A stretch of 64,000 bases of DNA from Chloroflexota bacterium (GCA_021787395.1 JAJYLZ010000009.1:2639-66638); one strand, 5' to 3'; positions 10,540-61,383 are shown, numbered from the stretch's first letter. The notes: generated by a model not told the origin, from the letters alone. Translations and numbers: made by a program.

Positions 10540-10576
10540 CTCACGCCGTCATCACCCCGCACTCATCTCCGATTAA
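10540..10576 (+). promoter_or_regulatory. 11-bp-period operator array (class A)
   Basis: CTCA 10540, ATCA 10551, CTCA 10562, TTAA 10573. Confidence 0.6.
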
Positions 10577-10640
10577 GGCTGCTCGACGACCGTCTGCACC
10601 GTCACCGGGCGGGCTGCAGCAGGAGGGAGATTGGAGTGCG

Positions 10641-11294
10641 ATGGACGGCAACATGACCGTGTCTGGGTCCGCGACGGACCAAGACAGCTACAAGGCCCGC
10701 GTGGCCGAGCACGGGCGCCTCCGCTCCCTGCTGGAATCGTTCGCCTACTCCGGGCCGTACCGGGCAATGTTCAAGCGCGCCGCCCCGTTCTACGCCGAGT
10801 CGTACTGGTACTGCATGGGCGGCATCACCTTCCTGATGTTCGTCTACCTGACGGTGAGCGGCATCCTCCTGGCCTGGCTCGGGCCCTTCTGGTGGCTCAC
10901 CGACCCGGTGGGGCAGTTCCTCAAGGCCACCCACTACTGGTCGGCACAGGCGTTCTTCTTCTTCCTCGTCCTCCACCTGGTTCGCGTCTGGGCGACGGGC
11001 TCGTACCGGGGGCGCCGCTGGGTCAACTGGCTGATCGGCGGCACGACCCTGCTGCTGGCCCTGGGCGAGAACCTGTTCGGCCTGCTGGCGCGCGGCGACT
11101 GGGAATCGCAGTTCGTCTCGATGCACTCGGACAACATGCTGTTCATCCAGCCGTTCTTCCTCAACCTATTCAAGCCCGGCGACTTCACGACGGACCTGGC
11201 GATCCACGTGGCGGTGATCCCGGTCGTGATGTTCGGGCTGATCCTGGCCCACCTGACCCTGGTCCGCCTCCAGGGGATCGCGCGGCCGCTCTAG
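10641..11294 (+). CDS. Cytochrome b/b6 N-terminal domain protein
   Basis: YWYCMGG, SGILL, THYWSAQ...VLHLVR, W..G, G.L.RGDWESQ, HVAVIP...AHL heme-His pattern. Confidence 0.85.
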   Translation: MDGNMTVSGSATDQDSYKARVAEHGRLRSLLESFAYSGPYRAMFKRAAPFYAESYWYCMGGITFLMFVYLTVSGILLAWLGPFWWLTDPVGQFLKATHYWSAQAFFFFLVLHLVRVWATGSYRGRRWVNWLIGGTTLLLALGENLFGLLARGDWESQFVSMHSDNMLFIQPFFLNLFKPGDFTTDLAIHVAVIPVVMFGLILAHLTLVRLQGIARPL

Positions 11295-11316
11295 GCCGCA
11301 ACCCGGAGGTGCGAGC

Positions 11317-12273
11317 ATGACATCCCAACCTGCCATGGCATCCGAGCGCACGGGGGAGACGTCGGGCCCGCCCGAGACGCACGTGCGCCACGCGTTCTGG
11401 AAGTACCCGCTCATCGCGGCCGCGATCCTTGTCGTCATCGTCGTCGTCGCCCTCGTCGCGGGCTCGCCCAACTGGCCGCGGGACAGCATCGCCACCGTCG
11501 CCAAGCAGGACCCTGGCGGCTCCGTCCTCGCCTTCACCCAGGAGCTCGACGGCACGTCGTCGTCCTGGGGCAACACGGGGGAGGTCAACTCGCGGCCCGA
11601 CCAGCTGTTCGTGCTCGGGCCGCTGACGGCCTACGAGCCCCTGCTCGGGGCCCCGGTGAGCGCCGCCGTGGCGATGTACGAGCAGGCGTCCGACGCTCAG
11701 CGGCAGGCGTGGGCGTCAGCCTACGACGACGCGCTCGGCACGATCACCCCGGAGGGCTCCGGCGGCGGCATGGAGGGCGCGGCCAGCCCCGACTACTCGA
11801 AGGTCGGCACGCTCACCGGCGACTTCGGCCCGGTCCCCGCGCTGACGGCCGCGTCGCTCCAGCTGGCGCAGGGCGGATACCTCCAGATGTACCTGACCGC
11901 GCTCCGCCCGGGCCACTCGCTCCACCTGACGACCATCTGGCTCTACGACGAGCCTGCGATGCTCAACACGGCCGTCGACCAGGGCCTCACGGACGACCAG
12001 TGGGGGATGATGAAGGAGCGCGGGTTCGCGGTCGGCCCGTGGTACCTGGCCCTGCCCGCGGTCATCCACGTGCTGCTCCCGGGCGGCGCGACCGGCATCG
12101 GGTTCACGCTCTGGAACCTCGGGTTCGCGCTCCTGTTCCTGTTCGCGGTGCCCCTCGTTCCGGGTCTGCGCGGGCTCCCGAAACGGCTCCGGCTGTACCG
12201 GCTGGTGTACCGCTACCCGCTCAGGGACGAACGGGTGACTCCGTATCCGGGCGCCGGCGAGGAGGCACGATGA
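11317..12273 (+). CDS. Membrane-anchored hypothetical protein, partner of cytochrome b
   Basis: N-terminal TM, extracytoplasmic domain, C-terminal GPWYLALP..TM..VPLVPGLRGLP..L.LYRLVYR; RBS GGAGG. Confidence 0.75.
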   Translation: MTSQPAMASERTGETSGPPETHVRHAFWKYPLIAAAILVVIVVVALVAGSPNWPRDSIATVAKQDPGGSVLAFTQELDGTSSSWGNTGEVNSRPDQLFVLGPLTAYEPLLGAPVSAAVAMYEQASDAQRQAWASAYDDALGTITPEGSGGGMEGAASPDYSKVGTLTGDFGPVPALTAASLQLAQGGYLQMYLTALRPGHSLHLTTIWLYDEPAMLNTAVDQGLTDDQWGMMKERGFAVGPWYLALPAVIHVLLPGGATGIGFTLWNLGFALLFLFAVPLVPGLRGLPKRLRLYRLVYRYPLRDERVTPYPGAGEEAR

Positions 12274-12560
12274 ACGGAGGAGACGTCGCGATGCACTGGC
12301 GGCGCGGGCTCGCCGAGGCGGCCCTGTTCATCGCGGCGTCGACCGCCGGGATCTACGGGCTCGGCGAGGGCCTGAACGGCTTCTTCGGCGGTGCTGCCGA
12401 CCCCTGGTGGCTCGCCGTGAGCGCCGTGGCCCTCGCCGTCCTCGCCAAGCAGATGGGCCGGGTGCAGGACCGCTGGCCGCGGCGGGCAGCCCCGGCCGGC
12501 GACGTCAGCGGAACGGCAATCAACTCCCCCGCCAGCGGCGGACGCGACCACCAGCACTGA
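12270..12560 (+). CDS. Small 2-TM membrane protein
   Basis: ATGA coupling to the upstream gene, RBS GGAGG, two hydrophobic segments. Confidence 0.7.
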   Translation: MNGGDVAMHWRRGLAEAALFIAASTAGIYGLGEGLNGFFGGAADPWWLAVSAVALAVLAKQMGRVQDRWPRRAAPAGDVSGTAINSPASGGRDHQH

Positions 12561-14106: not shown

Positions 14107-14812
14107 ATAACCCTGCACGACCGCCCGCCGCGCGTCCTCGTCGTCGACGACGAGCCGGCGATCCGCGCGGTCGTGCGCGGCTTCCTCGAGCGCGACGGGC
14201 TGGACGTGTCGGAGGCGGGCGACGGTCCGTCGGCGGTCGACGCGGCCGTCGGGCTCGAGCCCGACGTGATCGTCCTCGACGTCATGCTTCCCGGGTTCGA
14301 CGGCCTCGAAGTCCTCCGCCAGGTGCGCGCCTTCTCCGACCCCATGGTGGTGCTCCTGACCGCCCGGACCGAGGAGGTGGACCGGATCGTCGGGCTGCGG
14401 GTCGGCGCGGACGACTACGTGACGAAGCCGTTCTCGGCAGCCGAGCTGGCTGCGCGCGTCGAAGCGCTCCTGCGCCGGCGCCGCGCAGCGCCCGCCTCGG
14501 CCAGCGGCACCCCGGAGGGATTGGTGCTCGACACCGCCCGCCGGCTCGTCTCGGTCGACGACGAGCGCGTCGAGCTCACGATGGATGCTCGAGTTCGACC
14601 TCCTCGCGGCCATCGCCCGCGACCCCGGCGTCGTGCTCACGCGCCAGCAGCTGCTCGACGCGGCGTGGGGCGAGGACTGGATAGGCGACGAGCACGTCCT
14701 CGACGTCCACGTCGCCAACCTGCGCCGCAAGCTCGGCGACGAGCCGTCGCGGCCGCGGTTCGTCGAGACCGTGCGCGGCGTCGGCTACCGGCTCCGGACA
14801 GACGCGCAGTGA
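14107..14812 (+). pseudogene. OmpR-family response regulator, disrupted
   Basis: [33 protein letters not shown]; GATG duplication at 14580-14587 shifts frame; start reads ATA; no adjacent kinase. Confidence 0.8.
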
Positions 14813-15100
14813 ACCGGGCAGGCAGTGCCGAGCGCTTCGGAGCGCGCAAGTAGGCCCGCGACGCCGTGCGGTGCGGGTTGACGCGCCGACCTGGGTGGGC
14901 CTCACGGGCGCCATCGTCGCGCCGCGAGCCCTCCACCGGGCGGGTCGGTCCCGCTCGCTGAACGCCGCCGAGCGGCCCCTGGTTCGCGTCAAGCAGTCGC
15001 TGGTCGAGGCGATCGTCGGCACCCCCTCCGTGGCAGGCAGTGGCGGGGGCTCGTCGCGACCTTCACCCCGCGGCAGCCGCTCGCCCGACGCGGCGCCAAC

Positions 15101-19451: not shown

Positions 19452-19649
19452 CTACATCTCGGCCACGTAGCCCTCGGTGAGGAACGTCTCGGGGTCCTCG
19501 CCGAACTCGAGGAGGCAGCCCTTGCCGCAGAAGACGTACTCGCGGCCAGCGTGGTCGCGCGCGAGGCCCTTCTTGCGGGCCTCGGCGACATCGACCTTCA
19601 TCCCGCAGACGGGGTCTTCGTCCGGCGCGACGGCGCGGTGCTCGGCCAT
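19452..19649 (-). CDS. YHS/TRASH-domain protein
   Basis: DPVCGM...FCGKGC; RBS GAGGAG. Confidence 0.85.
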   Translation of the reverse strand: MAEHRAVAPDEDPVCGMKVDVAEARKKGLARDHAGREYVFCGKGCLLEFGEDPETFLTEGYVAEM

Positions 19650-19662
19650 GTCGGAACTCCTC

Positions 19663-20010
19663 TCAGTGGTGGTGCGCGGCCCCGAGGGCGGCCTGCTCGG
19701 CGTCAAGGGCGGCCTTGACGTCCGGGTACGCCTCGGACAGGCAGCACGAGCAGCTCTCGTACCAGCGGCGCATGCCGGCGTCGATCACGACGGGGCCCGC
19801 GGGCGCGATCGAGGGATCCGCCGCGGCCGCCTCGGCCGTCGCGATGTACTCGGGCGGGTCGTCCACGAACGACCGGCGGCAGCCTCGGCCGCAGAAGGCC
19901 CATGTCCTGCCGTCGTGCTCGAGGAGCAGGCCAACCGCCTCGGCCTTCGCGACGTCGACGGACATGCCGCACACGGGGTCGATCAGGGTCTCCGGTCGGG
20001 GTTCCTGCAA
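19663..20010 (-). CDS. YHS-domain protein with C-terminal CSCC motif
   Basis: DPVCGM...FCGRGC...WYESCSCCLS...HHH. Confidence 0.8.
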   Translation of the reverse strand: MQEPRPETLIDPVCGMSVDVAKAEAVGLLLEHDGRTWAFCGRGCRRSFVDDPPEYIATAEAAAADPSIAPAGPVVIDAGMRRWYESCSCCLSEAYPDVKAALDAEQAALGAAHHH

Positions 20011-20067
20011 CGCGAGGCTCCTTCTGGTGGGTCGCCCCGCCGGGCGGCCTGAACCAGTCTACGGCGG

Positions 20068-22425
20068 TCAGGACGCGGCGCGGGCGGCGGCCCGGGCCGA
20101 CGACGGGGACGTGACGGCGGGGCGAACCCGGAAGCGCCGGAGCCGCAGGGCGTTGGAGACGACGGTGACCGACGAGGCAGCCATCGCGGCAGCGGCGAAG
20201 ATCGGGTCGAGCAGCATCCCGTTGACCGGGTAGAGGACGCCCATCGCGATCGGGATGAGGATGACGTTGTAGCCGAAGGCCCAGACCAGGTTCTGGCGGA
20301 TGTTCCGCATGGTCGCATTGGACAGCGAGATGGCCGTGACGAGGCCCCGCAGGTCGCCCGACATGAGCGTCACGCCAGCCGATTCCATCGCGACGTCGGT
20401 CCCGGTGCCCATGGCCACGCCGACGTCGGCGGACGCGAGCGCGGGGGCGTCGTTCACGCCGTCGCCGACCATGGCCACGACCATGCCCTCGGCCTGGAGC
20501 GCCTTGACCGCGGCGGCCTTGCCGTCGGGCCGGACGTCCGCGACGACCCGGTCGATGCCGGCCGTGCGGGCGATCGCCTCGGCGGTCCGCCGGTTGTCGC
20601 CGGTGAGCATCGTCACCAGGATCCCGAGGCGGTGCAACTCGGCGACCGCCTCGACCGAACCCGCCTTGAGCGTGTCGGCGATCGCGATGACCGCGGCCCC
20701 ACGCCCGTCGACCGCGGCGAAGACCGGCGTCTTGCCGTCGGCGGCGAGGGCGTCGGCGGCGCCCGTCAGCCCGGAGACGTCCACACCGACCGACTGGAGG
20801 AAGCCCGGTCGCCCGACGACGACCTGCCGGCCGCCCACTGCGGCGGTGACCCCCCCGCCGGCGACCGCGAGGAAGTCGGCCGCCTCGGCGAGCGTGAGGC
20901 CCCGGGCCCCGGTCGCCTCGCGGACGATCGCATCGGCGAGCGGGTGCTCCGAGCCGCGCTCGGCGGCCGCGACGAGGGCGAGGATCTCGTCCTCGCGCAG
21001 GGCGCCTTGCGCGACGACCACGTCAGTCACGCGCGGCTTGCCCTCGGTGAGGGTGCCGGTCTTGTCGAGGACCACCGCCCTCACCGAGCCGAGCCGCTCG
21101 AGCGCCTCCGCGCTGCGGAACAGGACCCCGTTCTCGGCGCCCTTGCCGGTGCCGACCATGATCGAGGTCGGGGTGGCCAGGCCCAGGGCGCAGGGGCAGG
21201 CGATGATCAGGACCGCGACCGTGTTGAGCAGCGCCATGTTGAACGCGGGCTGCGGCCCGAGGGCGAACCACACGACGAAGGTCAGCACGGCAAGGAGGAG
21301 CACCGCCGGCACGAAGTACCCGGTCACGACGTCGGCGAGGCGCTGGATCGGGGCGCGGCTGCCCTGCGCCTCGGACACGAGGCGGATGATCTTGGCGAGC
21401 ACCGTGTCGGCGCCGACGCGCGTCGCCCGGAACGTGAGGGTGCCCGTTGTGTTGAGCGTGCCGCCGACGACGAGGTCGTCGGCGCGCTTGGCGACCGGCA
21501 GGCTCTCGCCGGTGATCATCGACTCGTCCACGCCCGAGGCGCCCTCGGTGACCACGCCGTCGACCGCGACCGTCTCGCCGGGGCGGACGCGCACGAGGTC
21601 GCCGACGCGGACCTGCGCGATCTCGACGTCGGTCTCCGCGCCGTCGCGGATGACGCGCGCGGTGCGTGGCGCGAGGTTGATGAGCTTGCGGATGGCGTCG
21701 GAGGTGTGGCTGCGGGCGCGCGCCTCGAGGAACCGGCCCAGCAGGATGAGCGCGATGATCGCCGCGCTCGTGTCGAAGTACATCGGCAGCGCCCCGCCGT
21801 CCATGCCCAGGCCCGCGGCGCGGAAGAAGCCGGGGAACGCGATCGTCGCGACGCTGTAGAGGTACGCCGCGGACGTGCCGACGGCGATGAGCGTGTTCAT
21901 GTCGGCGCTCTTGTGCCGCAGGGCCTTCCAGGCGCCGGCGTAGAAGACCGAGCCCGCCCAGAACTGGACCGGCGTGGCGAGCGCGAGCTGGAACCACGGG
22001 TTGGTGAAGACGGCGGGGATCCCGGGCAGCACGGCCATTCGCGCGAGGCCCACGATGAGCGGCAGCGTCAGCAGGGCGGCGACCGCGAGTCGCCGGCGCA
22101 GATTGGCTGCGTGCCTGGCGGCTGCCTCGTCGCGCTCGGCCTTCGCGGCGGCGGCCTCGGTGACGTCCGCCGCGTGGTCCGCTGTCGCCGCCTGCTCGAG
22201 GCGCGCCACGTAGCCCGCGGCGTCGACGGCCGCGACGAGCTCGGCAACGTCCACGCGAGTCGGGTCGTAGCGAACGGTCGCGGACTCGGACGCGAGGTTG
22301 ACGCTCGCCTCGTCGACACCGTCCACCTTGTTCAGGAACCGCGTGATGCGGTTGACGCACGAGGCGCAGGTCATACCCTCGACGGGGAACGACACGATCT
22401 CGATCGGGGCGGAAGGGGTGGTCAT
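20068..22425 (-). CDS. copA: Cu(I)-translocating P1B-1 ATPase
   Basis: [27 protein letters not shown]. Confidence 0.95.
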
Positions 22426-22439
22426 CTGCAGGCTCCAAT

Positions 22440-22456
22440 ATACTCCTGGGGAGTAT
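22440..22456. promoter_or_regulatory. CsoR/RicR-type operator of copA
   Basis: ATACTCCTGGGGAGTAT, 14 nt before the ATG. Confidence 0.7.
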
Positions 22457-22481
22457 TGTACACGCGCGTCAAGCGCAGCCG

Positions 22482-24305: not shown

Positions 24306-24357
24306 GACGCCGGCTCGTCGCCGTCGACGGGGCGGACGGCGATCACAACGAGAAGGA

Positions 24358-26419: not shown

Positions 26420-26497
26420 CAAGCGTTGGTCAAGAGTCGATCAACGCAAGACCCTGCGCCCGGCCGACACTCTCACCTCCCACTCACCTCCTGCTCA
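26420..26497. promoter_or_regulatory. Back-to-back 11-bp-period arrays in a divergent intergenic region
   Basis: CAAG/CAAG/CAAC at 26420/26431/26442 (class B); CTCA at 26472/26483/26494 (class A). Confidence 0.6.
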
Positions 26498-49426: not shown

Positions 49427-49522
49427 CGCCGGGGCCTCCTGGGGCGACGCCTCGCCCGCGGGCCCAGCGCGAGGTGCGGCGCGGTCGGTGCGACCGATCG
49501 CCGACGATCGCCCGCGGCTCCC

Positions 49523-51612: not shown

Positions 51613-51712
51613 GGCGGCGGGCGGCCTCCAAATCTTCGTGCGCCGCGAGACCGGCGGCTTCTCGCCGGGTACCAGCATCCTACGACGTCAGCCGGACGGT
51701 GACCTCTACGCC

Positions 51713-51738
51713 TGAGAGCCACCTGAGTGCCTGCTGAG
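51713..51738 (-). promoter_or_regulatory. 11-bp-period operator array (class A) upstream of the response regulator
   Basis: TGAG at 51713, 51724, 51735. Confidence 0.6.
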
Positions 51739-51952
51739 ACATCAGGCCTACAGGCGGGGCGACCGGTGCTCGCGCGGGACAAGGATGCTCCCGGGCTGCA
51801 GCACGCGGGTTCGGCGCCCGCTCGGGCTTGGTGCCTGCGCTGCCATCGACGCCAGCCCCGTGGCCTTTGCGCAACCCGAGCGTACGATGAGGGGCACGAG
51901 CTGATCACTGTCGGCCCGGAGGGTGGCCACTGGATGCGGCGCCGGCTCGTCA

Positions 51953-52699
51953 TCACGCCAGCGGGCCGACTCCGATGTGGCAGGCAGCAAGGAGGGCGAC
52001 ATACGCCGCGATCGGCAGCCACTCGAACGGCAGGGCTCGCCGGCGGTCGCTCCGGCCCGCCGACGCGGCGCCCACCAACCACTCGATACGCCTGACTGGA
52101 TCCGCCGCGAACGACGTACCGCCAGTGTCCAGCCAGTCCGTCTTGAGGAGCGCGCGCGCCACGGTGGCCCGGCTCGACCCGGCATCGATGGCCGCGCGGT
52201 CCGCCTCGATCTCGAGGTCCGAGAGGCGGCGGGCGGCGGCGTCTCGCACTGGACGAAACGGCCGGAGCAGGGTCGCCCACGCCTCGAGCGCCGCCGCATG
52301 CATCGGAGCCCGCGTCTTGCGGTGATGCTCCTCGTGGCGCAGCACCGCGAGAAGCTCGTCGGCCTGGAGGTCCGCGAGCAGTCCGGCGCCAATGTAGACG
52401 TTGGGGCGCAGCCAGCCGAGCACGAAGGCGTGTCGCCCGCCGCCATCGACGAGCAGGAATCGGACCCCCGCGACCTCCATCGTGCTCGCATGGGAGTCGA
52501 GCGCCCTGCGGAGGCGCTCGTCGCGAACGACGATCCGCAGACCAAGCACCGCCCAAGTGGCGACCGCGAGGGCGCCACCCACCTCAGGCGCGCGCAACGG
52601 ATCGCCGGAGGCGTGCGTCAGGGCGTCGGCGCACCACGCGCCGATCGCCACCGCCAGCCCGAACGCGGCCAGGAGCGCGACGGCCAGTCGCCGGTTCAC
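51953..52699 (-). CDS. M56/M48-family (BlaR1-like) membrane metallopeptidase
   Basis: AVLRHEEHH, EIEAD, ARALLK. Confidence 0.8.
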   Translation of the reverse strand: MNRRLAVALLAAFGLAVAIGAWCADALTHASGDPLRAPEVGGALAVATWAVLGLRIVVRDERLRRALDSHASTMEVAGVRFLLVDGGGRHAFVLGWLRPNVYIGAGLLADLQADELLAVLRHEEHHRKTRAPMHAAALEAWATLLRPFRPVRDAAARRLSDLEIEADRAAIDAGSSRATVARALLKTDWLDTGGTSFAADPVRRIEWLVGAASAGRSDRRRALPFEWLPIAAYVALLAACHIGVGPLA

Positions 52700-53109
52700 G
52701 GGGGCCCGCCGCCGGCGAGGCGGACGAGCTCCGCCCGGAGCTCCGGGTCGAGTTCGCCGAGCCTCTCGCCGAACTGGCGGACGGCGGCCGAGCCGTAGCG
52801 GGCGAGGACGGCGTCGACGGCCTGTCCCGCGAGCGCATCGACCGAGGCCGGCTCGTCGCCGGCGGGGCGGTACACGTAGCCGCGCCCGACCTTCGTCCGC
52901 TCCACCAGTCCGCGGTCGTGGAGGCGGACGAGGATGGTCATGACGGTGGTGTACGCCAGCTGGCGCGGCTGCTCGCGGTTGATGTGCGCCACGACGTCGG
53001 CGACGCTCGAAGGCCCGCGGTCCCACAGGACGCGCATGACCGCCGACGCGAGCGGGCCGAGCATCGATGCCACGCCGGGCTCCCCTAGGCGTTGCTCCTC
53101 CGGCTCCAT
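52696..53109 (-). CDS. BlaI/MecI/CopY-family repressor
   Basis: LGPL...VM..LW, LAYTTVMTILVRL..RGLV.R. Confidence 0.92.
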   Translation of the reverse strand: MEPEEQRLGEPGVASMLGPLASAVMRVLWDRGPSSVADVVAHINREQPRQLAYTTVMTILVRLHDRGLVERTKVGRGYVYRPAGDEPASVDALAGQAVDAVLARYGSAAVRQFGERLGELDPELRAELVRLAGGGPP

Positions 53110-53181
53110 CGGCCGACCATACCACGGCGCACCTCGGATGGCGGCGGCGCGGGCCAGGTGCAGGTCAGGCGAAGGCCGATA

Positions 53182-53199
53182 TACTACGGCCCTGTCGTA
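53182..53199. promoter_or_regulatory. BlaI-type operator
   Basis: TACTAC-GGCCCT-GTCGTA; related sites at 56825, 56912, 59002. Confidence 0.7.
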
Positions 53200-53728
53200 T
53201 GTCGGTGCTGAGTCCTACTGTCCCCTCGCCCGATCCCATCCCCTCCTCGCGTTCCGGAGTGCCCCTCGTCGAGCTCTCCCAGGCGACCAAGGTGTGCGGC
53301 GCCACGGTCGCCATATGGCGCGTCGACCTCCAGCTGCATGCCGGCGAGGGCGTTGGGATCGTCGGGGCAACGGCTCCGGGAAGACCACCCTGCTCCGAGC
53401 GGTCGCGGGGGTGCTGGAGCTCGACGCCGGCGCCCGTGATGCCGCACCCTCGTTGAAGGCCCACCCTGTTGGGGCACCGGTTAGGGCTGTTCGACGACCT
53501 CACCGTCCTCGAGAGCCTCCGCCTCTTCGACCACACGCGCAGCGGCGGCCCAGGGCGAGCGAGCCATCTCCTTTCGAGGCTGAGGCTGGACGACGTCGCG
53601 CACGCCCGGGTCTCGTCCCTGTCCGCAGACACGCGCCGCCGTGCCGGACTCGCACGGGCACTGGCCACCAACCCCGAACTGCTCGTGCTGGACGAGCCGT
53701 TCGCGTCGGTGGACGCCGAACACGCGTC
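53199..53728 (+). pseudogene. ABC-transporter ATPase (CcmA-like) remnant
   Basis: Walker A GNGSGKTT and LLVLDEP lie in different frames; truncated. Confidence 0.7.
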
Positions 53729-53968
53729 GACCTGGCAGGCGGCGAGCGCGAGCAGCGCGTACTCGACCGGGTTGGGGGCGGTGTCCGCGCCGCCGAGCGA
53801 GGGCGGCTCGTCCACCCCGAGCTCGAACGAGCGGATCCGCGCGTCGCTGCGCAGGGCGGCCGTCTGGCGGCTGGTCACGCGCAAGGTGTGGACGCTGGCG
53901 CCCTCGGGCGCGGCGGCGAGGGCCTCGCGGGTGGCGGCCACGAGCGGGGCGAAGGCGAACTCGGTCAT
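53726..53968 (-). pseudogene. OsmC-family protein, N-terminal fragment
   Basis: VDEPPSLGGADTAPNPVEYALLALAACQ then abrupt loss of homology. Confidence 0.7.
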
Positions 53969-54463
53969 GGGGTCTGATCTCCCAGGGGTGCGTCGTTGAA
54001 GGCGTACGGGTGGGAGGTCCCGGCCGGGTGCAGTGGTTCCGGCGGCAGGCCGTCGCATTCGTCCTGAGGAGCGATGGGCCGCAGCCTTGGCTGCGTTCTC
54101 GGGACCTCGGCCCGAGGCCAGGCGCGGTCAGCGACCGGCCGCGCGCCCTCGGGCCCCGTCCTCAGCGCGGCGGGGCCGCCGGCGCATACACATCATCCCC
54201 GCGGAGCGGCCGGGCGAGCTCGTGGGCGGACGGTACGAGCCTGACGGGTTGCGGTCAAGGAGCCGTTCGGTGCCGAGTTGGGTTCGGTCGCCAGGCTCTC
54301 CAGATGGGGTGCTCTACCCGGTTCCGGGTGTCGGCCGCGCCACGCAATCTTGACCGGCGAACGGCCTGCGCCGATCGAGCTCGCCAGGGCCGCGATCGTC
54401 ACGTCGGGGGCGCCGGCGGCCTGCTCGGCCCCCCGCGGCGCCCGCACCCCATGTGGCGGCCGA

Positions 54464-54955
54464 CTACGTCTCGGCGTCGGCCAGGTCGAGTTCCGCGGCG
54501 GCGACGACCCGCGAGCATGGGCTGCATCGCCCCACGACCGTCAGGTGGGAGAGGTTGACCACGAACCCCCGCGCTGCCGTCAGCGCTTCGGTCAGCGCCG
54601 CGGCTTCGGCTCCGCTGATATCCCAGGTCCCGCCGCACGCCTCGCAGCGCAGGTGGCCGTGCACGGACTCGGGCAGCACGTGGTATTCCTCGACTCCGTC
54701 GTGGCCGTGGGAATGGCGCACCAGCCCGAGCTCCTCGAGGGCGTCGAGGCTCCGGTAGACGGTTGAGGGCGTCGTGTCGGGGTCGACCGCCCGGCAGCGC
54801 TCGACGAGCTCGGAGCCGGTCACGTGGCCCTGCGCGGAGAGGAGCACTTCGACGAGCACCCGCCGCTGCGGCGTCCAGCGCATGCCGCTCGCCCGCAGGC
54901 GCGCCCTCGCCCTCTCGACCGCACTCTCTTCTCGGTGGCTGGCTGGCTGGCTCAT
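54464..54955 (-). CDS. Fur-family regulator (Nur/Zur-like)
   Basis: RWTPQR, STVYRSL, HSHGH, HGHLRCEACG, CSPC. Confidence 0.9.
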   Translation of the reverse strand: MSQPASHREESAVERARARLRASGMRWTPQRRVLVEVLLSAQGHVTGSELVERCRAVDPDTTPSTVYRSLDALEELGLVRHSHGHDGVEEYHVLPESVHGHLRCEACGGTWDISGAEAAALTEALTAARGFVVNLSHLTVVGRCSPCSRVVAAAELDLADAET

Positions 54956-55083
54956 CGCACCCGGCATCCTACGGCTCTCCTAACCGGCAGCTTACCGCGG
55001 CGCAGATGCCACGGAGGACAGATGCAACACGGCGCGTTAGGATGCCCCCTGACCCCACCGACCCTCGTCCCAGGGAGCCGTTC

Positions 55084-56160
55084 ATGCTGTCGCACCTCCG
55101 CCGTCTGCTCGACGCGTCCCCCAGCCTGCGGCGACGGGTCGTCGTGGTGTACGTCTTCCTGCTGTGCTTCAACGTCGCCGCGTGGGGCCTGGCCCTCGCG
55201 GCGTCCGCGGCCTACCCGATCCTGCTGCCGACAGCGTTCCTCGCCTACACGTTCGGCCTACGGCACGCCGTGGACGCGGACCACATCGCGGCGATCGACA
55301 ACTCGACCCGCAAGCTGATGCAGGACGGGCAGCGCCCCGTCGCGGTCGGGACGTTCTTCTCGCTCGGCCACTCGACCGTCGTCGTCGCCCTGTCGGTGCT
55401 CGTCGCCGTCTTCGCCGGCGCGGTGAGCGGGATCCCGGCGGCGCAGCGGATCGGCGGCCTGATCGGGACCGGGGTCTCCGCGACGTTCCTCCTCGTGATC
55501 GGCGTCATCAACCTGGTCGTGCTGCTCGACATCTGGCGGATGTTCCGGGAGGTCCGCGAGGGCGGCGAGTACAGCGAGGAGAGCCTCGAGGACTTCCTCG
55601 ACAGCCGCGGCCTCCTGGCGCGGCTCCTGCGGCCCGCGCTGCGGCTGATCCGGCGGAGCTGGCACATGTACCCGCTCGGCTTCCTGTTCGGCCTCGGGTT
55701 CGACACCGCGTCCGAGGTGGCGCTCCTCGGACTGGCGGCCACCTCCGGGGCCGGCGGCGTCCCGGTCGGCTACATCCTGATCCTGCCCGCGCTCTTCGCG
55801 GCGGGCATGTGCACCGTCGACTCCACCGACGGGATCCTGATGCTCGGTGCCTACGGCTGGGCCTATGTCAAGCCCATCCGCAAGCTGTATTACAACCTCA
55901 ACATCACCTTTGTGTCGGTGGTGATCGCCTTCATCATCGGCGGCATCGAGGTCCTGAGCATCATCGCGAACCAGTTCGGGCTGACCGGCGGGATCTGGGA
56001 CGTCGTCACAGGACTCGACTTCGGGCTGATCGGCCTCGGGATCATCGTGGTGTTCGCGGCGAGCTGGATCCTGTCAACGCTCGTGTACCGCTGGAAGGGC
56101 TACGACGACCTGCTCGCCGCGGCGCATCCGGCCATGGGGACGGGCGGCGACGCCTCCTGA
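55084..56160 (+). CDS. HoxN/HupN/NixA nickel/cobalt transporter (NiCoT)
   Basis: RHAVDADHIAAIDN, FSLGHSTVV, LFGLGFDTASE. Confidence 0.95.
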   Translation: MLSHLRRLLDASPSLRRRVVVVYVFLLCFNVAAWGLALAASAAYPILLPTAFLAYTFGLRHAVDADHIAAIDNSTRKLMQDGQRPVAVGTFFSLGHSTVVVALSVLVAVFAGAVSGIPAAQRIGGLIGTGVSATFLLVIGVINLVVLLDIWRMFREVREGGEYSEESLEDFLDSRGLLARLLRPALRLIRRSWHMYPLGFLFGLGFDTASEVALLGLAATSGAGGVPVGYILILPALFAAGMCTVDSTDGILMLGAYGWAYVKPIRKLYYNLNITFVSVVIAFIIGGIEVLSIIANQFGLTGGIWDVVTGLDFGLIGLGIIVVFAASWILSTLVYRWKGYDDLLAAAHPAMGTGGDAS

Positions 56161-56333
56161 CGCCCAGCCCCCGCTGCCACTCGCGCCGGCGGCGCACAAG
56201 GCGGGCGTTCCCGGATTCCCGGATCGTGACCACCAATCCGCGTGCCGGCAATCCACAGGCCTGTCTCAGCCTGCGCTCATGTGCGCGTCGATCATCGGCC
56301 CTAGCGATGGTCGGGACGGCAGGAGTTCACGCA

Positions 56334-56777
56334 GTGCTTGAGCAGACATTCGGGCCGATGGGCCGCTGGGCCGAGGATCCCCGGGCGATCACGGTCGCCG
56401 TCGAGTCGATCCCGCTCGTCCGGGCCGCCTTCGAGTCTCTCGTGGCGACGGTCCCAGGGATCCGTCTGGCCTCCGCTGGCCCCGACCACCGGGCGACCAC
56501 GCCGATGGTCGTGCTCGAGGTGGATGTGGGCCAGGGACGGTCCTCGGATGATGGGACGCGTGCTCCCGCCCCGCGGGCCAACGTGCTCCGGCTCGCGCCC
56601 CAATGGGAACCGCGGGACGCGCTGCGGGCTGTTCAGGACGGGGCGGTCGGCTGCCTGACGACCGGCGCCTCGGTCGCCGACCTCGCGACTGCGATCCGCC
56701 GAGTGGCGCGGGGCGAGGTGACGCTGCCGCCAGGCGTTGACGGCGCCGCGCAGTGGGGCCAGCCCATCGGCCGCTGA
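56334..56777 (+). pseudogene. Degenerate NarL-type receiver fragment without HTH
   Basis: LVRAAF...ALRAVQDGAVGCL...DLATAIRRVARGE; class A array at 56254-56279. Confidence 0.45.
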
Positions 56778-56824
56778 CCATCCCCGCTGCGGCCGGCTTC
56801 GCCCGGGCCCTCCCCGAACGCTTG

Positions 56825-56929
56825 TACGACAGCGCTGTAGTAGCATCGCGCCAGCGAGCTCGACTCGCCCGCCTCCGCGCCAAGCGGCGCGACCAGCTCG
56901 CCCGCCACGAATACGACATATGTGTAGCA
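56825..56929. promoter_or_regulatory. Two BlaI-type operators
   Basis: TACGAC-AGCGCT-GTAGTA (56825) and TACGAC-ATATGT-GTAGCA (56912). Confidence 0.7.
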
Positions 56930-56983
56930 GGTTGGCGGCGGCGGCCCGTTCAACCGCAGCACGCTAGAGCTAGAGAGAAGCAG

Positions 56984-58171
56984 ATGTCCTCCCGGAGCAA
57001 CCGAGCGTCAGGGCGCGCACGGCGCCCCAAGACCGCGGGCGAACGGCGGTCCTCGCCTCCGGCCGTGCCTTCCGGTGTCGCAGCCGCGGGCGCGGGGATC
57101 GTAGCCGATCCCCCTGGCGCCACGGCCGACCAGCCGAGAGTGGAGCCGGCTGCCCTCGTCGTCTCCCACTGGTTCGAGTCGGGCCCCGCAGGCGGACCCC
57201 GGTACGACGCCACCATCCGGGTCGTGGGCCGGCGGCGCGGCGTGGACGCGGGGAGGGCCGGCCCGGGCGACTCGTTCTCGGTGTCCGAGGCCGTCCAGGG
57301 GGTCGTGCCGGGCTCCGGTCCCGTCGCGGCGACCAGCTGGGTCTACGGGGTGACCGCCGGGGACTGGGACGTGAGCGCCGAGCTCGTTGGGCCCGAGCGC
57401 GCCCGCCAGGCGAACGGCGGCGGCCGGGTTCACCGCGCCGGCTGGTCGTGGCGGCGCTGGACGGTCGAGTCGGCGCCCGACGCCCCGGTCTCCACCCGCT
57501 GGGCGCCGATCGCCCCGCTCGCGGCGAGCCCGGTGGTGGCCCCGGGGAGCTTCACCGTCCTCGCCGCCGTTGCGCTGGCCGCCGCCATCGGGCTCGAGCC
57601 GGCGTTCCTCGCCCACCACCGCCTCGATGTCGGCAGCGCCCTCGTCGCGTCCGTCCTCGGCGCGGCGCTGGGCCTGGCCGGGGCGAAGGCTTGGTACATG
57701 GCCCTCAAGGGCTTCTCGCGCGCGACCCTCCGCGAGGGTTGGTCGGTAGACGGCTTCCTGATCGCGGCGCCCGTCGCGGCCTCGATCGTGGCTGTCGTCC
57801 TCGGGGAGCCCCTCGGCGCGTTCCTCGACGCGGTCACCCCGGGCCTGTTCGTCGCCGTCGCGATCGGGCGGATCGGCTGCTTCTTCACCGGCTGCTGCGC
57901 CGGGCGAACGACGGCCGGCTGGGGGATCTGGTCCTCCGACAGACGCGTCGCTGCCCGCCGGGTCCCCACACAGCTGCTCGAGTCGCTGACCGGGGCCGCC
58001 CTCGCCGCGGTCTCGACCGCCGTGGTGCTCGGCCGCGTCGCATACGGGTCGGGTCTGGTGTTCGCGGCGACGATCGTGGCCTACGTGGTGGCGCGGCAGG
58101 GGCTGCTACGCCTCCGCGCGGAGTCGCGGCCGTTCTCGTGGCGGCGCGCCGCGCCCGCACGGACCGGGTAG
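56984..58171 (+). CDS. Lgt-like protein with N-terminal soluble extension
   Basis: GAKAWY, IGRIGCFFTGCCAG, WSSD, RVPTQLLES. Confidence 0.75.
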   Translation: MSSRSNRASGRARRPKTAGERRSSPPAVPSGVAAAGAGIVADPPGATADQPRVEPAALVVSHWFESGPAGGPRYDATIRVVGRRRGVDAGRAGPGDSFSVSEAVQGVVPGSGPVAATSWVYGVTAGDWDVSAELVGPERARQANGGGRVHRAGWSWRRWTVESAPDAPVSTRWAPIAPLAASPVVAPGSFTVLAAVALAAAIGLEPAFLAHHRLDVGSALVASVLGAALGLAGAKAWYMALKGFSRATLREGWSVDGFLIAAPVAASIVAVVLGEPLGAFLDAVTPGLFVAVAIGRIGCFFTGCCAGRTTAGWGIWSSDRRVAARRVPTQLLESLTGAALAAVSTAVVLGRVAYGSGLVFAATIVAYVVARQGLLRLRAESRPFSWRRAAPARTG

Positions 58172-58226
58172 CCGCGCCGGGGCTGGAAACGCCGCAGGCG
58201 GGACGAGGGGGCGACGCAGCGGCTGT

Positions 58227-58916
58227 TCAGGTCCCGTCAGGCACCGTGGGCCCGATCGCCCGCTCGGGCCAGTGGCCGCGCCGCTCCTTGACCAGCTGGC
58301 CGAGCTTCATCATCCCGTAGGTCAGGCCCTCCGGCCGGGGCGGGCAGCCAGGGACGTAGACGTCGACCGGCAGGAGCCGGTCGATGCCCTGGATCGTGGA
58401 GTAGGAGCGCTTGTAGCGGCCGCCCGAGCAGGTGCAGTCGCCCATGGCCACGCACCACTTCGGCTCGGGCATCTGCTCCCACAGGCGGACGAGCGGGCCG
58501 GCCATCTTGGTCGTCAGGGTGCCGGCCACGATCAGGACGTCGGCCTGTCGCGGGCTGGCGCGGAACGGGAACATGCCCCAGCGGTCCATATCGTTGCAGC
58601 TGCAGGCCGCCGACATCATCTCGATCGCGCAGCAGGCGAGGCCCGACAGCAGCGGCCAGAGGCTGTTCATGCGGATCAGGTCGATCAGGATGTCGGCCTT
58701 GGTCGGGATCACGTCCAGCTGGCCCCAGCGTGCCGTGTCCGCCAGCACGAGGTCCGAGCCCTCGAGCTCGCGGAGGTGCGTGGAGGCGGGCGCGGTGCCC
58801 TGGTAGGCGCCCGGCCGGACCGTGGACCACAGCGTGTTGGGGACGACGATCGGCTCGGCTCGGGCGTCGCGCCCGGAGTCTGCCGTGGCGATCAACCGGC
58901 GGGGCGGCTCGTCCAT
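58227..58916 (-). CDS. nuoB: Stand-alone NuoB-family 4Fe-4S protein
   Basis: GLACCAIEM, RASPRQAD, MPEPKW..AMGDC, VDVYVPGCPPRPE. Confidence 0.92.
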   Translation of the reverse strand: MDEPPRRLIATADSGRDARAEPIVVPNTLWSTVRPGAYQGTAPASTHLRELEGSDLVLADTARWGQLDVIPTKADILIDLIRMNSLWPLLSGLACCAIEMMSAACSCNDMDRWGMFPFRASPRQADVLIVAGTLTTKMAGPLVRLWEQMPEPKWCVAMGDCTCSGGRYKRSYSTIQGIDRLLPVDVYVPGCPPRPEGLTYGMMKLGQLVKERRGHWPERAIGPTVPDGT

Positions 58917-59300: not shown

Positions 59301-59641
59301 GAGCCTCCTCCCCTGGCGGTGCTCGAGCGCGTGGGGTCGCCCGATCCGGTCCCACCCGTCGCCCCGGTTGCTGCACGGGGCGTCATCCCGCCCGCACCCA
59401 GGCCGACGAGGCGCTTGCGCTCATGGCGGCGCGAATCGAGCCCATCGGTTTCAGCGTCCACCAGCGATGCTGATCATGAACCGAGGCTGGCCGCGGCTGA
59501 TGAATCCAGAGTGAGCCGCGGATGAGACTTCCGGTCCCATTCGGCACCGCCCGCCTGCTTCCGTCCGGCGCGGGACCTCCGCGTCGGCTCGGATCAGCTG
59601 GCCGACACGGTCGGGAGCTGGTCCGGCGCGCCGCCGAGGCG

Positions 59642-60847
59642 TCAGGCCGCGCACGCCGCCAGGCACCATGCGCAGCGATCGCAGCCCGCCGGCTCGACGA
59701 ACAGCGCCCGCGGCGCGAGCTCGGCGGCATGCAGCCCGCAGGCGCAGGCGAGCTCGCACCGGCCGTCGATCGCGAACGGCGCCGACCGCCCGGCGATGGC
59801 GTCGATCGCCCGCTCGCGCACCGTGTGGCTCAGGCGTACGCCGAGCAGCGCAACGCTGATCGACCCCTCGGCCACGAGCGCGATCGCGCCCAGGCGGTCG
59901 AGCGCAGGGCCGAGCACGCCGCGCAGGCGGCGGTCGTGGTCCTGTAGCGAGCCGATGGCGCCGTCGGCCCAGTCGCCGATGACCTGGGCGGCGGCGACGC
60001 CGGACAGGAGCGCGTACGAGATGCCCTCGCCGAACAGGGCATCGGCCGTCGCGGCCGCGTCGCCCGCCAGGACGACCCGGTCCGAGGCGAGCGGCCCTGT
60101 GCGGAGCCCCTGGGGGATCCAGTGCCCGCGCACGTGCCCCGCGCTCGGGTCGAGGCCGAGATCGCGGGCGAAGCGCGCCAGATCGCCTCGCAGCCGGCGG
60201 TGCTCGGAGGCGCGGTACGAGCCTACGCCGACGTTGGCGTGGTCGCCCTTCGGGAAGTACCAGCCGTAGCCGCCCCGCAGGCCGAAGGCCAGCACGGCCG
60301 TCTCGGGCGCGACCACCGAGGAGAACGGCAGGTCGACCTCGAGCGCCAGGGCCAGGCGGTGCGGCGTGCCACCGAGGCCCAGCCGGCGGGACAGGGCGCT
60401 CGGTTCGCCGTCGGCCACGACCGCGACATCCGCCGCGAACCGCCCGCCCGCGGTGCGGATCGCCACGCCGGTCTCGTCTTCGACGATGTCGAGGACCGGG
60501 GTCGCGTCGCGGACCTCGGCCCCCGCGCGCGCCGCGGCCTCGACCAGGGTGAGGTCGAACCGTGTCCGTTCGACCATCGCGATCGTCGCGGCGGGCGCCT
60601 CGATGCGGAACGAGCCGAGGTGTGGCGCCCGGAGCTCCACCCGCTCGACGCGGCGCTCGACCACCTCGAGCGCCTCTCGCGGGACGAGCCGCTGGGCCTT
60701 CGGGGTCAGGCCGCCGCCGCACAGCTTGGGGCGCGGCAGGCGGCGGGCCTCGAAGAGGGTCACGTCGGCGCCGCGCTCGGCGAGGAGCCGGGCGGCGGTG
60801 CTGCCGGCCGGTCCGGCTCCGATGACGGCGACCCTGGGCTGCGACAT
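59642..60847 (-). CDS. Geranylgeranyl reductase family flavoprotein with Cys-rich tail
   Basis: GAGPAG, KLCGGG, YGWYFP, GDAA...GEGISYA; CELACAC...CDRCAWCLAAC. Confidence 0.88.
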   Translation of the reverse strand: MSQPRVAVIGAGPAGSTAARLLAERGADVTLFEARRLPRPKLCGGGLTPKAQRLVPREALEVVERRVERVELRAPHLGSFRIEAPAATIAMVERTRFDLTLVEAAARAGAEVRDATPVLDIVEDETGVAIRTAGGRFAADVAVVADGEPSALSRRLGLGGTPHRLALALEVDLPFSSVVAPETAVLAFGLRGGYGWYFPKGDHANVGVGSYRASEHRRLRGDLARFARDLGLDPSAGHVRGHWIPQGLRTGPLASDRVVLAGDAAATADALFGEGISYALLSGVAAAQVIGDWADGAIGSLQDHDRRLRGVLGPALDRLGAIALVAEGSISVALLGVRLSHTVRERAIDAIAGRSAPFAIDGRCELACACGLHAAELAPRALFVEPAGCDRCAWCLAACAA

Positions 60848-60852
60848 GGGCG

Positions 60853-61122
60853 TCAGGCGGCCCTAGCCGAGCGGTCGACGACGAAGTTCCAGGCGGCGGC
60901 CGCGGCCGCGGCCGCGGCGAGGCCGTACAGGGCCATCTCGACGAGGCCCAGCACGAAGCTGACCGGATCGAGCCAGGTGAAGCCCGGGAAGAGCGTCGGG
61001 AAGGACCGCCACATGCCGAACACGTCGGGCCAGATGGCCCCGGCCGCGAGGCAGACGAGGTAGGCGACCTCGCCGACGGCGACGAGTGCCGCCGCGAGTG
61101 GCGCGAACGGCAGGCGGTTCAT
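60853..61122 (-). CDS. DUF5676-like membrane protein
   Basis: YLVC...LFPGFTWL...GLVE...YG; RBS GGAGG. Confidence 0.8.
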   Translation of the reverse strand: MNRLPFAPLAAALVAVGEVAYLVCLAAGAIWPDVFGMWRSFPTLFPGFTWLDPVSFVLGLVEMALYGLAAAAAAAAAWNFVVDRSARAA

Positions 61123-61383
61123 GTGTGCTGCCTCCTGCGGTGCTGTCGTTGATGACGACCGGACAGCCGCCCGGGGTCATCCACGGTTGAGAGCGTCGCT
61201 CGTTCGAGTTAGCCGGCGGTGAACCCGCGCTGAGGTCCTGCTGAGAACGGGGGAGCCATGGCCGTGCGCAACCCCGGCCTCTCAGGCGTAGCTCACCTGT
61301 CCCTCAGGCCACGGACCGATGCTGCACGCGTGAAGGGCCGATACGTGCGCCTGGGCTCCACGTTGGGCGTCGCTCAGCACGCC

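Follow-up and report, generated by a model that had tools for sequence, protein, structure and literature searches.

The locus raises the question of whether the short direct repeats that precede many of its genes are the operators of a single regulon and, if so, which regulator reads them. The window analysed here, a stretch of 64,000 nucleotides from a Chloroflexota bacterium, had been predicted to carry 14 arrays of three to four (C/T/A)TCA units with a period of 11 bp. The host probably belongs to the Limnocylindrales within the Chloroflexota rather than to the actinobacteria. All 14 arrays were found where they had been placed, the minus-strand coordinates of the original prediction being the left ends of the arrays. 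The unit pattern holds strictly in 10 of them, while each of the other four contains one degenerate unit (CTAA at 36703 and 48930, CACA at 56254, and ATTA at 38979) but still reaches 17.3–23.6 bits on a position weight matrix (PWM). Five arrays (10540, 30092, 36257, 38979, and 61209) were read by eye as having four units. The consensus of the repeat is T-CTCA-G/C, occurring once per 11 bp in direct orientation in three, sometimes four, units; only the 4–5 bp cores are conserved, and the spacers vary from site to site.

The strict pattern, [CTA]TCA-N7-[CTA]TCA-N7-[CTA]TCA, has 12 overlapping matches in the window, originating from the 10 strict arrays, while 0.03 matches are expected from 100 dinucleotide shuffles of the window, with a largest value of 2. 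Genome-wide, 35 matches were obtained at period 11 and none at periods 7, 8, 10, 13, 14, 16, 17, and 19; the 14–16 matches at periods 9, 12, 15, and 18 track codon periodicity. Likewise, the number of PWM matches above 14 bits was 74 at period 11, 48 at period 12, 42 at period 9, 3 at period 10, and 1 at period 13. The period is close to one helical turn (10–11 bp), as expected of the sites of OmpR/PhoB-type activators.

On the plus strand, the array at 10540–10576 (CTCA ATCA CTCA TTAA; 27.8 bits), for which the A and T of a −10 element were located by eye at 10589 and 10593, precedes a cytochrome b-like gene (10641–11294, Pfam Cytochrom_B_N_2) and two genes without assigned function. The three-unit array at 26472–26497 (27.1 bits; −10 GACGAT), with a predicted transcription start at about 26521, is followed by small membrane ORFs at 26585–26881 and 26890–27060; the description of the gene downstream as CopD-like was not borne out, as no Pfam match was obtained at E ≤ 1e-3. 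The gene downstream of the array at 30092–30128 (CTCA ATCA TTCA TTCA; 29.9 bits; −10 A at 30141 and T at 30145) is uncertain (30412–30915, no Pfam match). Arrays of three units also precede a YHS protein gene at 36785–37021 (36703–36728, third unit CTAA; 23.6 bits; −10 AACGAT) and a gene for a Cys-rich TRASH/YHS-like protein at 49154–49426 (49037–49062; 28.1 bits; −10 GACGCT), which has no Pfam match of its own and groups by blastp with Pfam-positive TRASH/YHS proteins. Downstream of the array at 56254–56279 (three units, the first CACA; 23.3 bits), the −10 element of which (ATCAT) lies one base closer, are a gene for a 147-aa protein and, 362 bp further on, an lgt-like gene (57140–58171). The array at 61281–61306 (three units; 29.3 bits; −10 GATGCT), ahead of an EamA transporter gene, is located back to back with a minus-strand array at 61209–61245 (four units, the fourth CTAA; 28.5 bits), which precedes genes for a DUF5676-like protein (60853–61122; E = 8e-5, under the Pfam cut-off) and a FAD oxidoreductase (59642–60847).

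The other minus-strand arrays precede genes for a YHS/TRASH protein at 31015–31359 (31694–31719, three units; 31.5 bits; −10 CAGACT), a PRC-barrel protein at 35726–36196 (36257–36293, four units; 24.7 bits; −10 CAGGAT), 106-aa and 367-aa membrane proteins (48930–48955, three units, the first CTAA; 18.1 bits; a poor −10), and an 80-aa protein followed by a NuoB-like protein at 58227–58916 (Oxidored_q6; array at 59501–59526, three units; 29.8 bits; −10 CAGCCT). The array at 38979–39015 (CTCA ATTA CTCA TTCA; 17.3 bits) is found ahead of an operon, running from 38963 down to 37133, for a 67-aa protein, a cupredoxin, Lgt, and a His-rich 100-aa protein. A three-unit array at 51713–51738 (32.6 bits) lies before a regulator–kinase operon, with the −10 A at 51700, the T at 51696, and a predicted transcription start at about 51689.

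Three weaker minus-strand sites were absent from the earlier list: 28318–28343 (three units; 17.8 bits), ahead of a gene for a 378-aa membrane protein (27158–28294) paralogous to 47501–48604; 29981–30006 (19.3 bits), divergent from the array at 30092 and with an uncertain downstream gene; and a doubtful, array-like site at 35489–35525 (about 13 bits, 12.9–13.2), ahead of a TetR-MMPL-LemA operon (35437 down to 31815). For the main CopA operon, which runs from 26333 down to 19452, the PWM scan revealed no array, a point against the regulon model.

The proposed number of about 14 units thus proved too low: the window has 17 sites, the whole contig holding it (C72) has 22, and a second island (C17, 60–160 kb) contributes a further 26. 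These two regions comprise 5.1% of the genome and contain 48 of its 67 site clusters scoring at least 12 bits. According to the crude gene calls made for this analysis, 47 of the 48 island sites are intergenic, compared with 18% of island DNA. Shuffled and non-island controls, which had been proposed as a check, therefore came out in favour of the arrays, which far exceed the shuffles, are concentrated in the islands, and are not equally frequent in coding DNA or genome-wide. The expected agreement between the orientation of an array and that of the downstream gene was observed for 41 of the 48 island sites, each followed within 350 bp by the start of a gene on the same strand.

The −10 columns lie outside the PWM and were counted over 105 distinct sites from seven genomes. 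An AnnnT element was detected, with A at +13 after the last repeat in 75 of the 105 sites and T, four bases further, at +17 in 86, against a background of 13% per base. Given this exact 13-nt distance between the last repeat and the A, the repeats would lie at promoter positions of about −49, −38, and −27, and no −35-like hexamer was found at the −35 position of the array promoters. Judged from the predicted −10, the repeats occupy the place of the −35 element at a fixed distance, as at PhoB/PhoP-type activated promoters. Arrays are kept ahead of orthologous genes though the flanking DNA diverges; the array–target pairs recurring across diverged islands involve genes for HMA (seven contigs), cupredoxin, Lgt, and TRASH/YHS proteins (six contigs each), and an array ahead of the cupredoxin-lgt pair recurs on six contigs. 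Among the predicted targets across both islands are P-type ATPases, a multicopper oxidase, YHS/TRASH and HMA proteins, cupredoxin-lgt, PspA, and M48 protease operons, cytochrome b-like and Nuo-like genes, and many genes lacking a functional annotation.

The candidate binder is the OmpR/PhoB-family response regulator encoded at 50935–51612 on the minus strand, hereafter RR3. Its ATG start at 51612 is conserved along with the ribosome-binding site, and both a receiver domain (Pfam E = 5e-33) and a winged-helix Trans_reg_C domain (2e-27) were recognised. The Asp of its LDVMMPG segment aligns with the same segment of M. tuberculosis PhoP, in which the acceptor is Asp71 (PMC4832192). The cognate histidine kinase HK3 (49526–50935, minus strand) comprises two transmembrane helices, an outer sensor of about 137 aa, and HAMP, HisKA, and HATPase domains. 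The sensor has a generic PDC/PAS-like fold, with WalK and KinD as the nearest matches and CzcS at rank 15; one His is invariant and two are near-invariant, and no Cys is conserved in at least six of the eight orthologues. Only 50 clusters among 1.84 billion representatives belong to this sensor family, and the mean identity among orthologues is 63%. A second copy of RR3, 90% identical, is present on C17, and the two sensors of the genome are 68% identical.

Assignment of the pair to a described family is less straightforward. Against the heavy-metal two-component family (TIGR01386/TIGR01387, CusRS/CopRS/CzcRS), RR3 scores 233.7 bits, below the curated cut-off of 279.2, and HK3 scores 190.4 bits, below the cut-off of 292.55, though this is its best full-length match. 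The NCBIfam CseB model gave 198 bits for RR3 (cut-off 350), and no MprA model was among the best 25 of the 77 families matching. The earlier designation of the regulator as MprA-like agrees nevertheless with the automatic JGI label of proteins 85–91% identical to it, as well as with the CssR/HtrB-type homologues. The nearest solved relatives of RR3 are PhoP, the best of them (E = 2e-62), and PrrA; for PhoP, structure 5ED4 and transcription activation complexes are available. PhoP reads TCACAGC-N4-TCACAGC via Asn212, Val213, Glu215, Ser216, Tyr217, and Tyr220 (PMC4832192). The recognition helix of RR3 retains four of these six residues (Asn, Glu, and both Tyr), with Ile in place of Val213 and Val in place of Ser216.

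RR3 orthologues (87–90% identity) were identified in 7 of the 25 genomes of the genus, on array-rich contigs; these genomes contain 5–32 strict arrays each, compared with 0–6 in the other 18. Across the class, RR3 is present in 17 of 301 sampled genomes (12 of 57 genera, two families; orthologues at 82–90% identity), and at least five arrays were found in 14 of these 17 genomes versus 10 of the 284 without RR3. Among the matches listed for the latter genomes with at least five strict arrays, several are tandem repeats. The strict matches in one genome, G318, resemble island arrays; its regulator may be unassembled or below the threshold. Against the link to RR3, no three-unit array was found within 6 kb of four Chloroflexia-type homologues (62–64% identity) whose helices are nearly identical, the best PWM scores being 3.0–9.4 bits.

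The array before the regulator operon, from which autoregulation had been proposed, recurs among relatives: all 14 RR3 orthologues examined have a site scoring 19 bits or more ahead of their operon, within about 250 bp in 12 of them and about 1.2–1.3 kb upstream in two (in G003 another gene intervenes; the G154 stretch was not gene-called). In seven of eight aligned orthologue promoters, conservation is confined to the array, and no alignment extends into the promoter DNA on either side. Repeat period, fixed −10 distance, co-occurrence, and recognition helix together lend comparative support to an OmpR/PhoB-type regulon probably run by the RR3 system.

However, co-occurrence alone cannot single out RR3, because every larger island encodes other OmpR-family regulators as well. 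The arrays could be genuine operators of a different OmpR-family protein, with RR3 being merely one of the targets; candidates are other island regulators (41628–42389 or the C17 152889–153590 type) or a chromosomal paralogue on contig C4 or C57 with a similar helix. The helices of the regulators on C4 and C57 resemble those of PhoP/PrrA, arrays adjoin their own loci, and the site at C4 24619 is conserved in G022, a genome without RR3. Nevertheless, the C4 sites, none of which is in an island, are composed of units of the CTCATCG type, and a survey of the genus for arrays and RR3 found no array-rich contigs in genomes lacking RR3. The other island regulators are only 56–71% conserved while the motif is unchanged, and their helices are unrelated and lack the Asn/Tyr/Tyr base-contacting pattern, RR3 alone among them having a PhoP/CssR-type recognition helix. 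We consider it unlikely that another regulator is the binder.

It is quite unlikely that RR3 binds the arrays but acts by promoter occlusion, the island being de-repressed when RR3 is unphosphorylated. The repeats do overlap the core promoter (−50 to −24), and OmpR-family regulators can repress, as described for CutR at htrB (PMC12802291). However, the absence of a −35-like hexamer is typical of activator-dependent promoters, and the rigid phasing to the −10 element resembles that of PhoB/PhoP-activated promoters (PMC11825685). Moreover, htrB, cssR, and cssS transcripts drop in css mutants of Streptomyces lividans (PMC3498368). Finally, contig C96 has a true 11-bp tandem repeat matching the pattern, and relatives carry comparable tandem runs, but an origin of the arrays by chance or from a dispersed element of the REP or MITE kind is extremely improbable and is contradicted by near-zero shuffle and off-period controls, variable spacers around 4–5 bp cores, fixed gene orientation and −10 phasing, and retention before orthologous genes with diverged flanks.

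The arrays are thus probably operator–promoter elements of an OmpR/PhoB-family activator, with RR3 as the likely binder and island-wide activation as the outcome. Phosphorylated by its partner HK3, RR3 would bind head-to-tail, one subunit per repeat, and recruit RNA polymerase in the manner of M. tuberculosis PhoP and Escherichia coli PhoB. Besides its own operon, it would activate some 16 further units of the window; together with its 90% identical copy, it would serve about 48 promoters, spread over the two paralogous islands of metal and envelope genes, so that one sensor would probably switch on the whole metal-resistance island. The weakest step of this model concerns the inducing signal, most likely extracytoplasmic stress from metal (copper) or the resulting envelope damage. 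More tentatively, the sequence comparisons may point to a self-contained, portable regulon, in which more than 20 promoters per island, all without a −35 element, answer solely to a CssR/MprA-type regulator borne on the island, with a rare, fast-evolving sensor. In this genome, two diverged sensors would then converge on one shared operator, pooling two signals on some 48 promoters, and the motif would double as the CssR operator of Streptomyces.

Among known systems, each E. coli pho box has two direct repeats of 11-bp period, which stop about 10 bp short of the −10 element and replace the −35; the repeat sequence is unlike CTCA and the signal is phosphate. Compared with it, the arrays have a third repeat further upstream. 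The MprA box comprises two 8-bp repeats 3 nt apart. CopRS of Corynebacterium glutamicum is a copper-induced, autoregulated OmpR-family pair with a copper ATPase and a multicopper oxidase among its targets (PMC3353115). Its tandem repeat also has an 11-bp period, but the sequence, TGAAGATTT, differs from that of the CTCA arrays; one binding site and nine target genes are described, unlike the many promoters of the island, and the outer loop of CopS is about 30 aa, compared with about 137 aa for the outer sensor of HK3. Horizontally acquired islands bring their own metal-responsive two-component systems in Pseudomonas paraeruginosa and Legionella (LciRS), which, according to the abstracts, regulate a copper-resistance system or one effector gene (PMC11195947, PMC6989116). 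In the parts of the literature on accessory copper two-component systems that were consulted, no island-wide set of at least 20 uniformly built promoters was found.

M. tuberculosis PhoP belongs to the same regulator family as RR3 and recognises 7-bp direct repeats with a 4-bp spacer; its core TCACAGC is one position apart from T-CTCA-GC, the third base being A in PhoP and T here. Tandem PhoP units over the −35 activate transcription, displacing sigma region 4 (PMC11825685), and cooperative trimers, tetramers, and hexamers have been described (PMC4832192, PMC11825685). The arrays differ from PhoP sites in having mostly three units rather than pairs, and RR3 from PhoP in being island-borne, patchily distributed among genera, and presumably directed at metal and envelope genes.

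CssRS-htrB of Streptomyces shares the helix type N-x-L-[D/E]-V-Y-x-x-Y and an identical grammar of array, 13-nt gap, and AnnnT: ten homologues from Streptomyces or other Actinomycetota (54–57% identity) have this arrangement before the operon, and the one annotated locus (L035) encodes an HtrA-like protease, a regulator, and a kinase, the htrB-cssRS layout. In S. lividans, htrB expression was found to depend on CssR (PMC3498368, PMC12802291). The CssR/MprA clade has an adjacent HtrA/PepD-type protease gene, but neither island has one, no Trypsin_2 match being obtained for the 122 proteins of the window or the 125 of C17/C72. The CssS sensor is described as having two conserved Cys (PMC12802291), while that of HK3 has none comparably conserved, and the regulon here differs from CssRS in comprising dozens of promoters. 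No operator definition for CssR was found in the portions of the CssRS literature consulted; if the proposed wiring is correct, the motif described here would define this hitherto undefined operator of Streptomyces.

The original prediction placed 14 arrays in the window, each consisting of three or four CTCA-type direct repeats with an 11-bp period, and proposed that they mark an OmpR/PhoB-type regulon. All 14 arrays are present, and a position weight matrix (PWM) of 30 columns, built from 27 sites, recovers 14 of 14 with scores of 17.3–32.6 bits and adds three window sites, at 28318, 29981, and 35489 (the last one weak). The strict three-unit pattern [CTA]TCA-N7-[CTA]TCA-N7-[CTA]TCA occurs 12 times in the window, against 0.03 expected and a maximum of 2 in 100 dinucleotide shuffles. 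When the spacing alone was varied, the whole genome yielded 35 matches at period 11 and zero at periods 7, 8, 10, 13, 14, 16, 17, and 19, while the 14–16 genome matches at spacings that are multiples of three are due to coding periodicity. The 35 matches are distributed over contig C72, which contains the window (15), C17 (13), C96 (four), and C4, C79, and C91 (one each). A plain 11-bp tandem repeat (CTCACCSGCGG) at C96:32092–32183 fits the strict pattern and is without promoter-like features; tandem runs resembling it raise array counts in some relatives.

The PWM gave 74 matches above 14 bits; respacing the matrix to periods 10 and 13 left 3 and 1, respectively. Neither coding DNA nor the genome at large carries the arrays at equal frequency: 48 of the 67 site clusters scoring at least 12 bits genome-wide are located in two islands comprising 5.1% of the genome, and, on rough in-house gene calls, 47 of these 48 island sites are intergenic, compared to 18% of island DNA. 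A co-directional gene start lies at most 350 bp away in 41 of the 48.

The window (G000:C72:2639–66638) belongs to a 3.45 Mb draft genome with a G+C content of 73.8% and is, by Pfam content, a metal and envelope island, with genes encoding P-type ATPases, YHS/TRASH and HMA proteins, cupredoxins, two lgt paralogues, LemA-MMPL, NicO-Fur, CopY/BlaI-like, MerR, and ArsR regulators, and several two-component systems. The same families form a paralogous island at 58–160 kb of contig C17, which additionally contains a multicopper oxidase, PspA and M48 protease operons, and a Nuo-like operon. Extra lgt paralogues are found at 37432–38247 and 57140–58171 of the window, and the C17 island has four more together with a Lit transacylase; several of these lgt genes share array-headed operons with cupredoxins, a hint that the response includes lipoprotein maturation. 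The genes at 27158–28294 and 47501–48604 (-) encode membrane proteins that are paralogous to each other, each about 370 aa long and with no Pfam match; an array precedes each, and relatives with arrays are present on 4 island contigs. One response-regulator gene is split over two frames on the plus strand, the receiver in the frame of 14173–14850 and Trans_reg_C in that of 14585–14809, and is either a frameshifted pseudogene or an assembly error. The operon at 43424–45664 (+) encodes SHOCT and copper-binding proteins followed by a kinase, while its paralogue at C17:151771–154460 (-) also includes a regulator gene, which seems to have been lost from the window copy. DNA nearly identical to window 48500–58400 was detected in metagenome contigs of three studies (mine drainage, wastewater, and sediment), mine drainage being possibly the source; no RNA datasets matching this segment were found.

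Comparison of array-headed operons on 10 island contigs from 7 genomes revealed recurrent target families. The regulator–kinase pair RR3–HK3 is array-headed on 8 contigs, small HMA proteins on 7, and cupredoxin, lgt, and TRASH/YHS-like genes on 6 contigs each. Nuo-like operons and genes for MacB-type ABC, DoxX, cytochrome b-like, and M50-like membrane proteins are array-headed on 4 contigs each, and those for P-type ATPases on 3.

To describe the promoters, distinct sites were pooled across this genome and six relatives in the genus, 105 in total. The consensus runs T-CTCA-G-[C/G], then CTCA after five variable bases and CTCA-G after another seven, largely variable ones. Numbering from the array's first C puts A at position +38 in 75 of 105 sites and T at +42 in 86 of 105; the background frequency of each base is 13%, and both positions lie outside the PWM. 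Judged from these columns, the arrays are putative promoter elements, with a -10 motif AnnnT (-11A, -7T) exactly 13 nt past the last repeat, which would place the repeats at about -49/-46, -38/-35, and -27/-24. No -35-like hexamer was found at the -35 position in the 105 pooled sites. Five of the window's arrays have four units; in these, inspected by eye, the three promoter-proximal units hold the -10 register. Recognition by an ECF sigma factor was ruled out, since the sites have an AnnnT -10 and, upstream of it, a triple repeat in place of a single -35. A literature search returned nothing relevant on either a CTCA-type regulon or metal two-component systems in Limnocylindria.

The window contains three genes for OmpR-family regulators, one with a frameshift, and C17 contains three more. 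Four lines of evidence point to RR3 (50935–51612, minus strand) and its 90% identical C17 copy as the predicted array binder; the kinases of the two islands share 68% identity. RR3 orthologues (87–90% identity) are present in exactly 7 of 25 genus genomes, on array-rich contigs, and the next best regulator anywhere in these 25 genomes is 50–53% identical. The 7 genomes with RR3 contain 5–32 strict arrays, compared to 0–6 in the 18 without it, and a reversed-pattern control gave 0–2. An even sample of 301 class genomes contained orthologues (82–90% identity) in 17 genomes and 12 of 57 genera (12 of 91 in family f1 and 4 of 103 in family f4), a patchy distribution across two families; the genomes without RR3 include four unpublished ones. 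Counting by hand gave five or more strict arrays in 14 of 17 genomes with RR3 versus 10 of 284 without, related genomes not being independent. Several homologues of RR3 with 86–88% identity bear names from Limnocylindria or Chloroflexi, and EF-Tu of this genome shares 89% identity with a protein attributed to a Candidatus Limnocylindrales MAG; the host is therefore more probably a member of the Chloroflexota than an actinobacterium. In all 14 orthologues examined, the regulator operon is preceded by a site scoring at least 19 bits, in 12 of them within about 250 bp; in the relatives G003 and G154 it lies 1.2–1.3 kb upstream, with one intervening gene in G003. Alignment of eight orthologue promoters showed only two conserved blocks: the array, in 7 of 8, and the start codon together with its ribosome-binding site.

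The larger islands also encode other regulators, and their presence or absence does not separate them from RR3. The chromosomal paralogues on contigs C4 and C57 have related recognition helices and array-like sites of their own; cross-talk with them is possible. The C4 kinase–regulator pair ends a cluster of glycosyltransferase, ABC exporter, and UDP-glucose dehydrogenase genes and is flanked by CTCATCG-type arrays at C4:14080 (+; 17.4 bits) and C4:24619 (-; 28.8 bits), the second of which is kept in G022, a relative without RR3. The main CopA operon, at 19452–26333 (-) and encoding SHOCT, cupredoxin, HMA, DsbD-like, CopA, and two YHS proteins, is presumably under another regulator, since the PWM scan revealed no CTCA array for it and the array located in the gap upstream faces the opposite direction.

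The nearest solved relatives of RR3 are PhoP and PrrA of M. tuberculosis. According to the excerpted text of PMC4832192, PhoP binds TCACAGC-N4-TCACAGC via Asn212, Val213, Glu215, Ser216, Tyr217, and Tyr220; the corresponding residues of RR3 are Asn, Ile, Glu, Val, Tyr, and Tyr. Other island regulators have DDHLVDVHIGNIRRK and a second 15-residue stretch in the helix region. No three-unit array was found near four homologues of Chloroflexia type whose helix is almost identical to that of RR3. In two Anaerolineales MAGs, the sequence upstream of the regulator homologue contains TCACAG-type repeats with an 11-bp period (L039) and TCTCAGC-N4-TCTCAGC (L040), and therefore both core variants occur within the RR3 regulator clade. 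The residue at the Ser216 position is Ile in the homologue with TCACAG-type repeats and Val in that with TCTCAGC-type repeats. These two homologues weaken the idea that the change of Ser216 to Val explains that of the core base from A to T; since they differ in the core, no one-residue rule applies.

Ten Streptomyces and Actinomycetota homologues share 54–57% identity with RR3 and have the helix SSNSLDVYVMYLRRKT. At these loci (L027, L028, L030–L035, L037, and L046, from Streptomyces and one Actinomycetota MAG), the array TT-CTCAG-N6-CTCAG-N6-yTCTCA lies about 1.1–1.7 kb upstream of the regulator gene and is followed after 13 nt by AnnnT and 7–9 nt further on by ATG. At L035, the one locus annotated, it heads an operon of HtrA-like protease, regulator, and kinase genes, the htrB-cssRS layout. 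In S. lividans css mutants, htrB, cssR, and cssS transcripts are reported to be reduced (PMC3498368), and the cssR qPCR primer of that paper encodes N-S-L-D-V, matching the helix of these homologues. As a by-product of this work, the CTCA array is a candidate operator of Streptomyces CssR, which directly activates htrB and whose regulon was still undefined in December 2025, according to an extract of PMC12802291.

The kinase HK3 (49526–50935, minus strand) carries an H-box and an outer domain of about 137 aa, spanning residues 36 to 172 or so, with a predicted PDC/PAS-like fold (pLDDT 94.7); a fold search with this sensor returned the generic fold (WalK, KinD, chemoreceptors, and CzcS) and no ligand clue. 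The sensor belongs to a rare family, with 50 clusters (E<=1e-3) in a set of 1.84 billion representatives, and has diverged more quickly than the remainder of the protein (63% versus 76% mean identity), with His55 invariant and His121 and His123 nearly so. The nearest curated kinase family is a heavy-metal one, with a score below its cut-off. The gene content favours copper, some other metal, or the resulting envelope damage as the signal. Tandem regulator units could occupy the repeats by analogy with PhoP transcription activation complexes, in which the unit over -35 lifts the DNA and takes over the sigma region 4 contact (PMC11825685, in excerpt); cooperative PhoP binding is described as extendable to trimers and tetramers on suitable repeats (PMC4832192).

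These results outline, in testable form, how a large and mostly uncharacterised metal/envelope-stress island of uncultured, probably Limnocylindrales, bacteria may be wired. One operator grammar predicts a joint response among dozens of genes of unknown function and therefore nominates TRASH/YHS proteins, extra lgt copies, DUF5676, and M50-like membrane proteins as metal/envelope-stress genes. The island would be an example of a mobile element that brings along its own regulator together with uniformly built, activator-dependent promoters.

The RR3 system belongs to the OmpR/PhoB family, and PhoB/PhoP-type class II activation is its predicted mode. The CssR/MprA-PhoP group is nearest to RR3, although the neighbouring protease of that group is absent at RR3, while against heavy-metal two-component families the system scores below curated cut-offs. 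The closest functional analogue is CopRS of C. glutamicum, described as having one site and nine target genes (PMC3353115, in excerpt). What is unusual is the scale and uniformity of the system, with about 22–26 predicted promoters of identical build per island.
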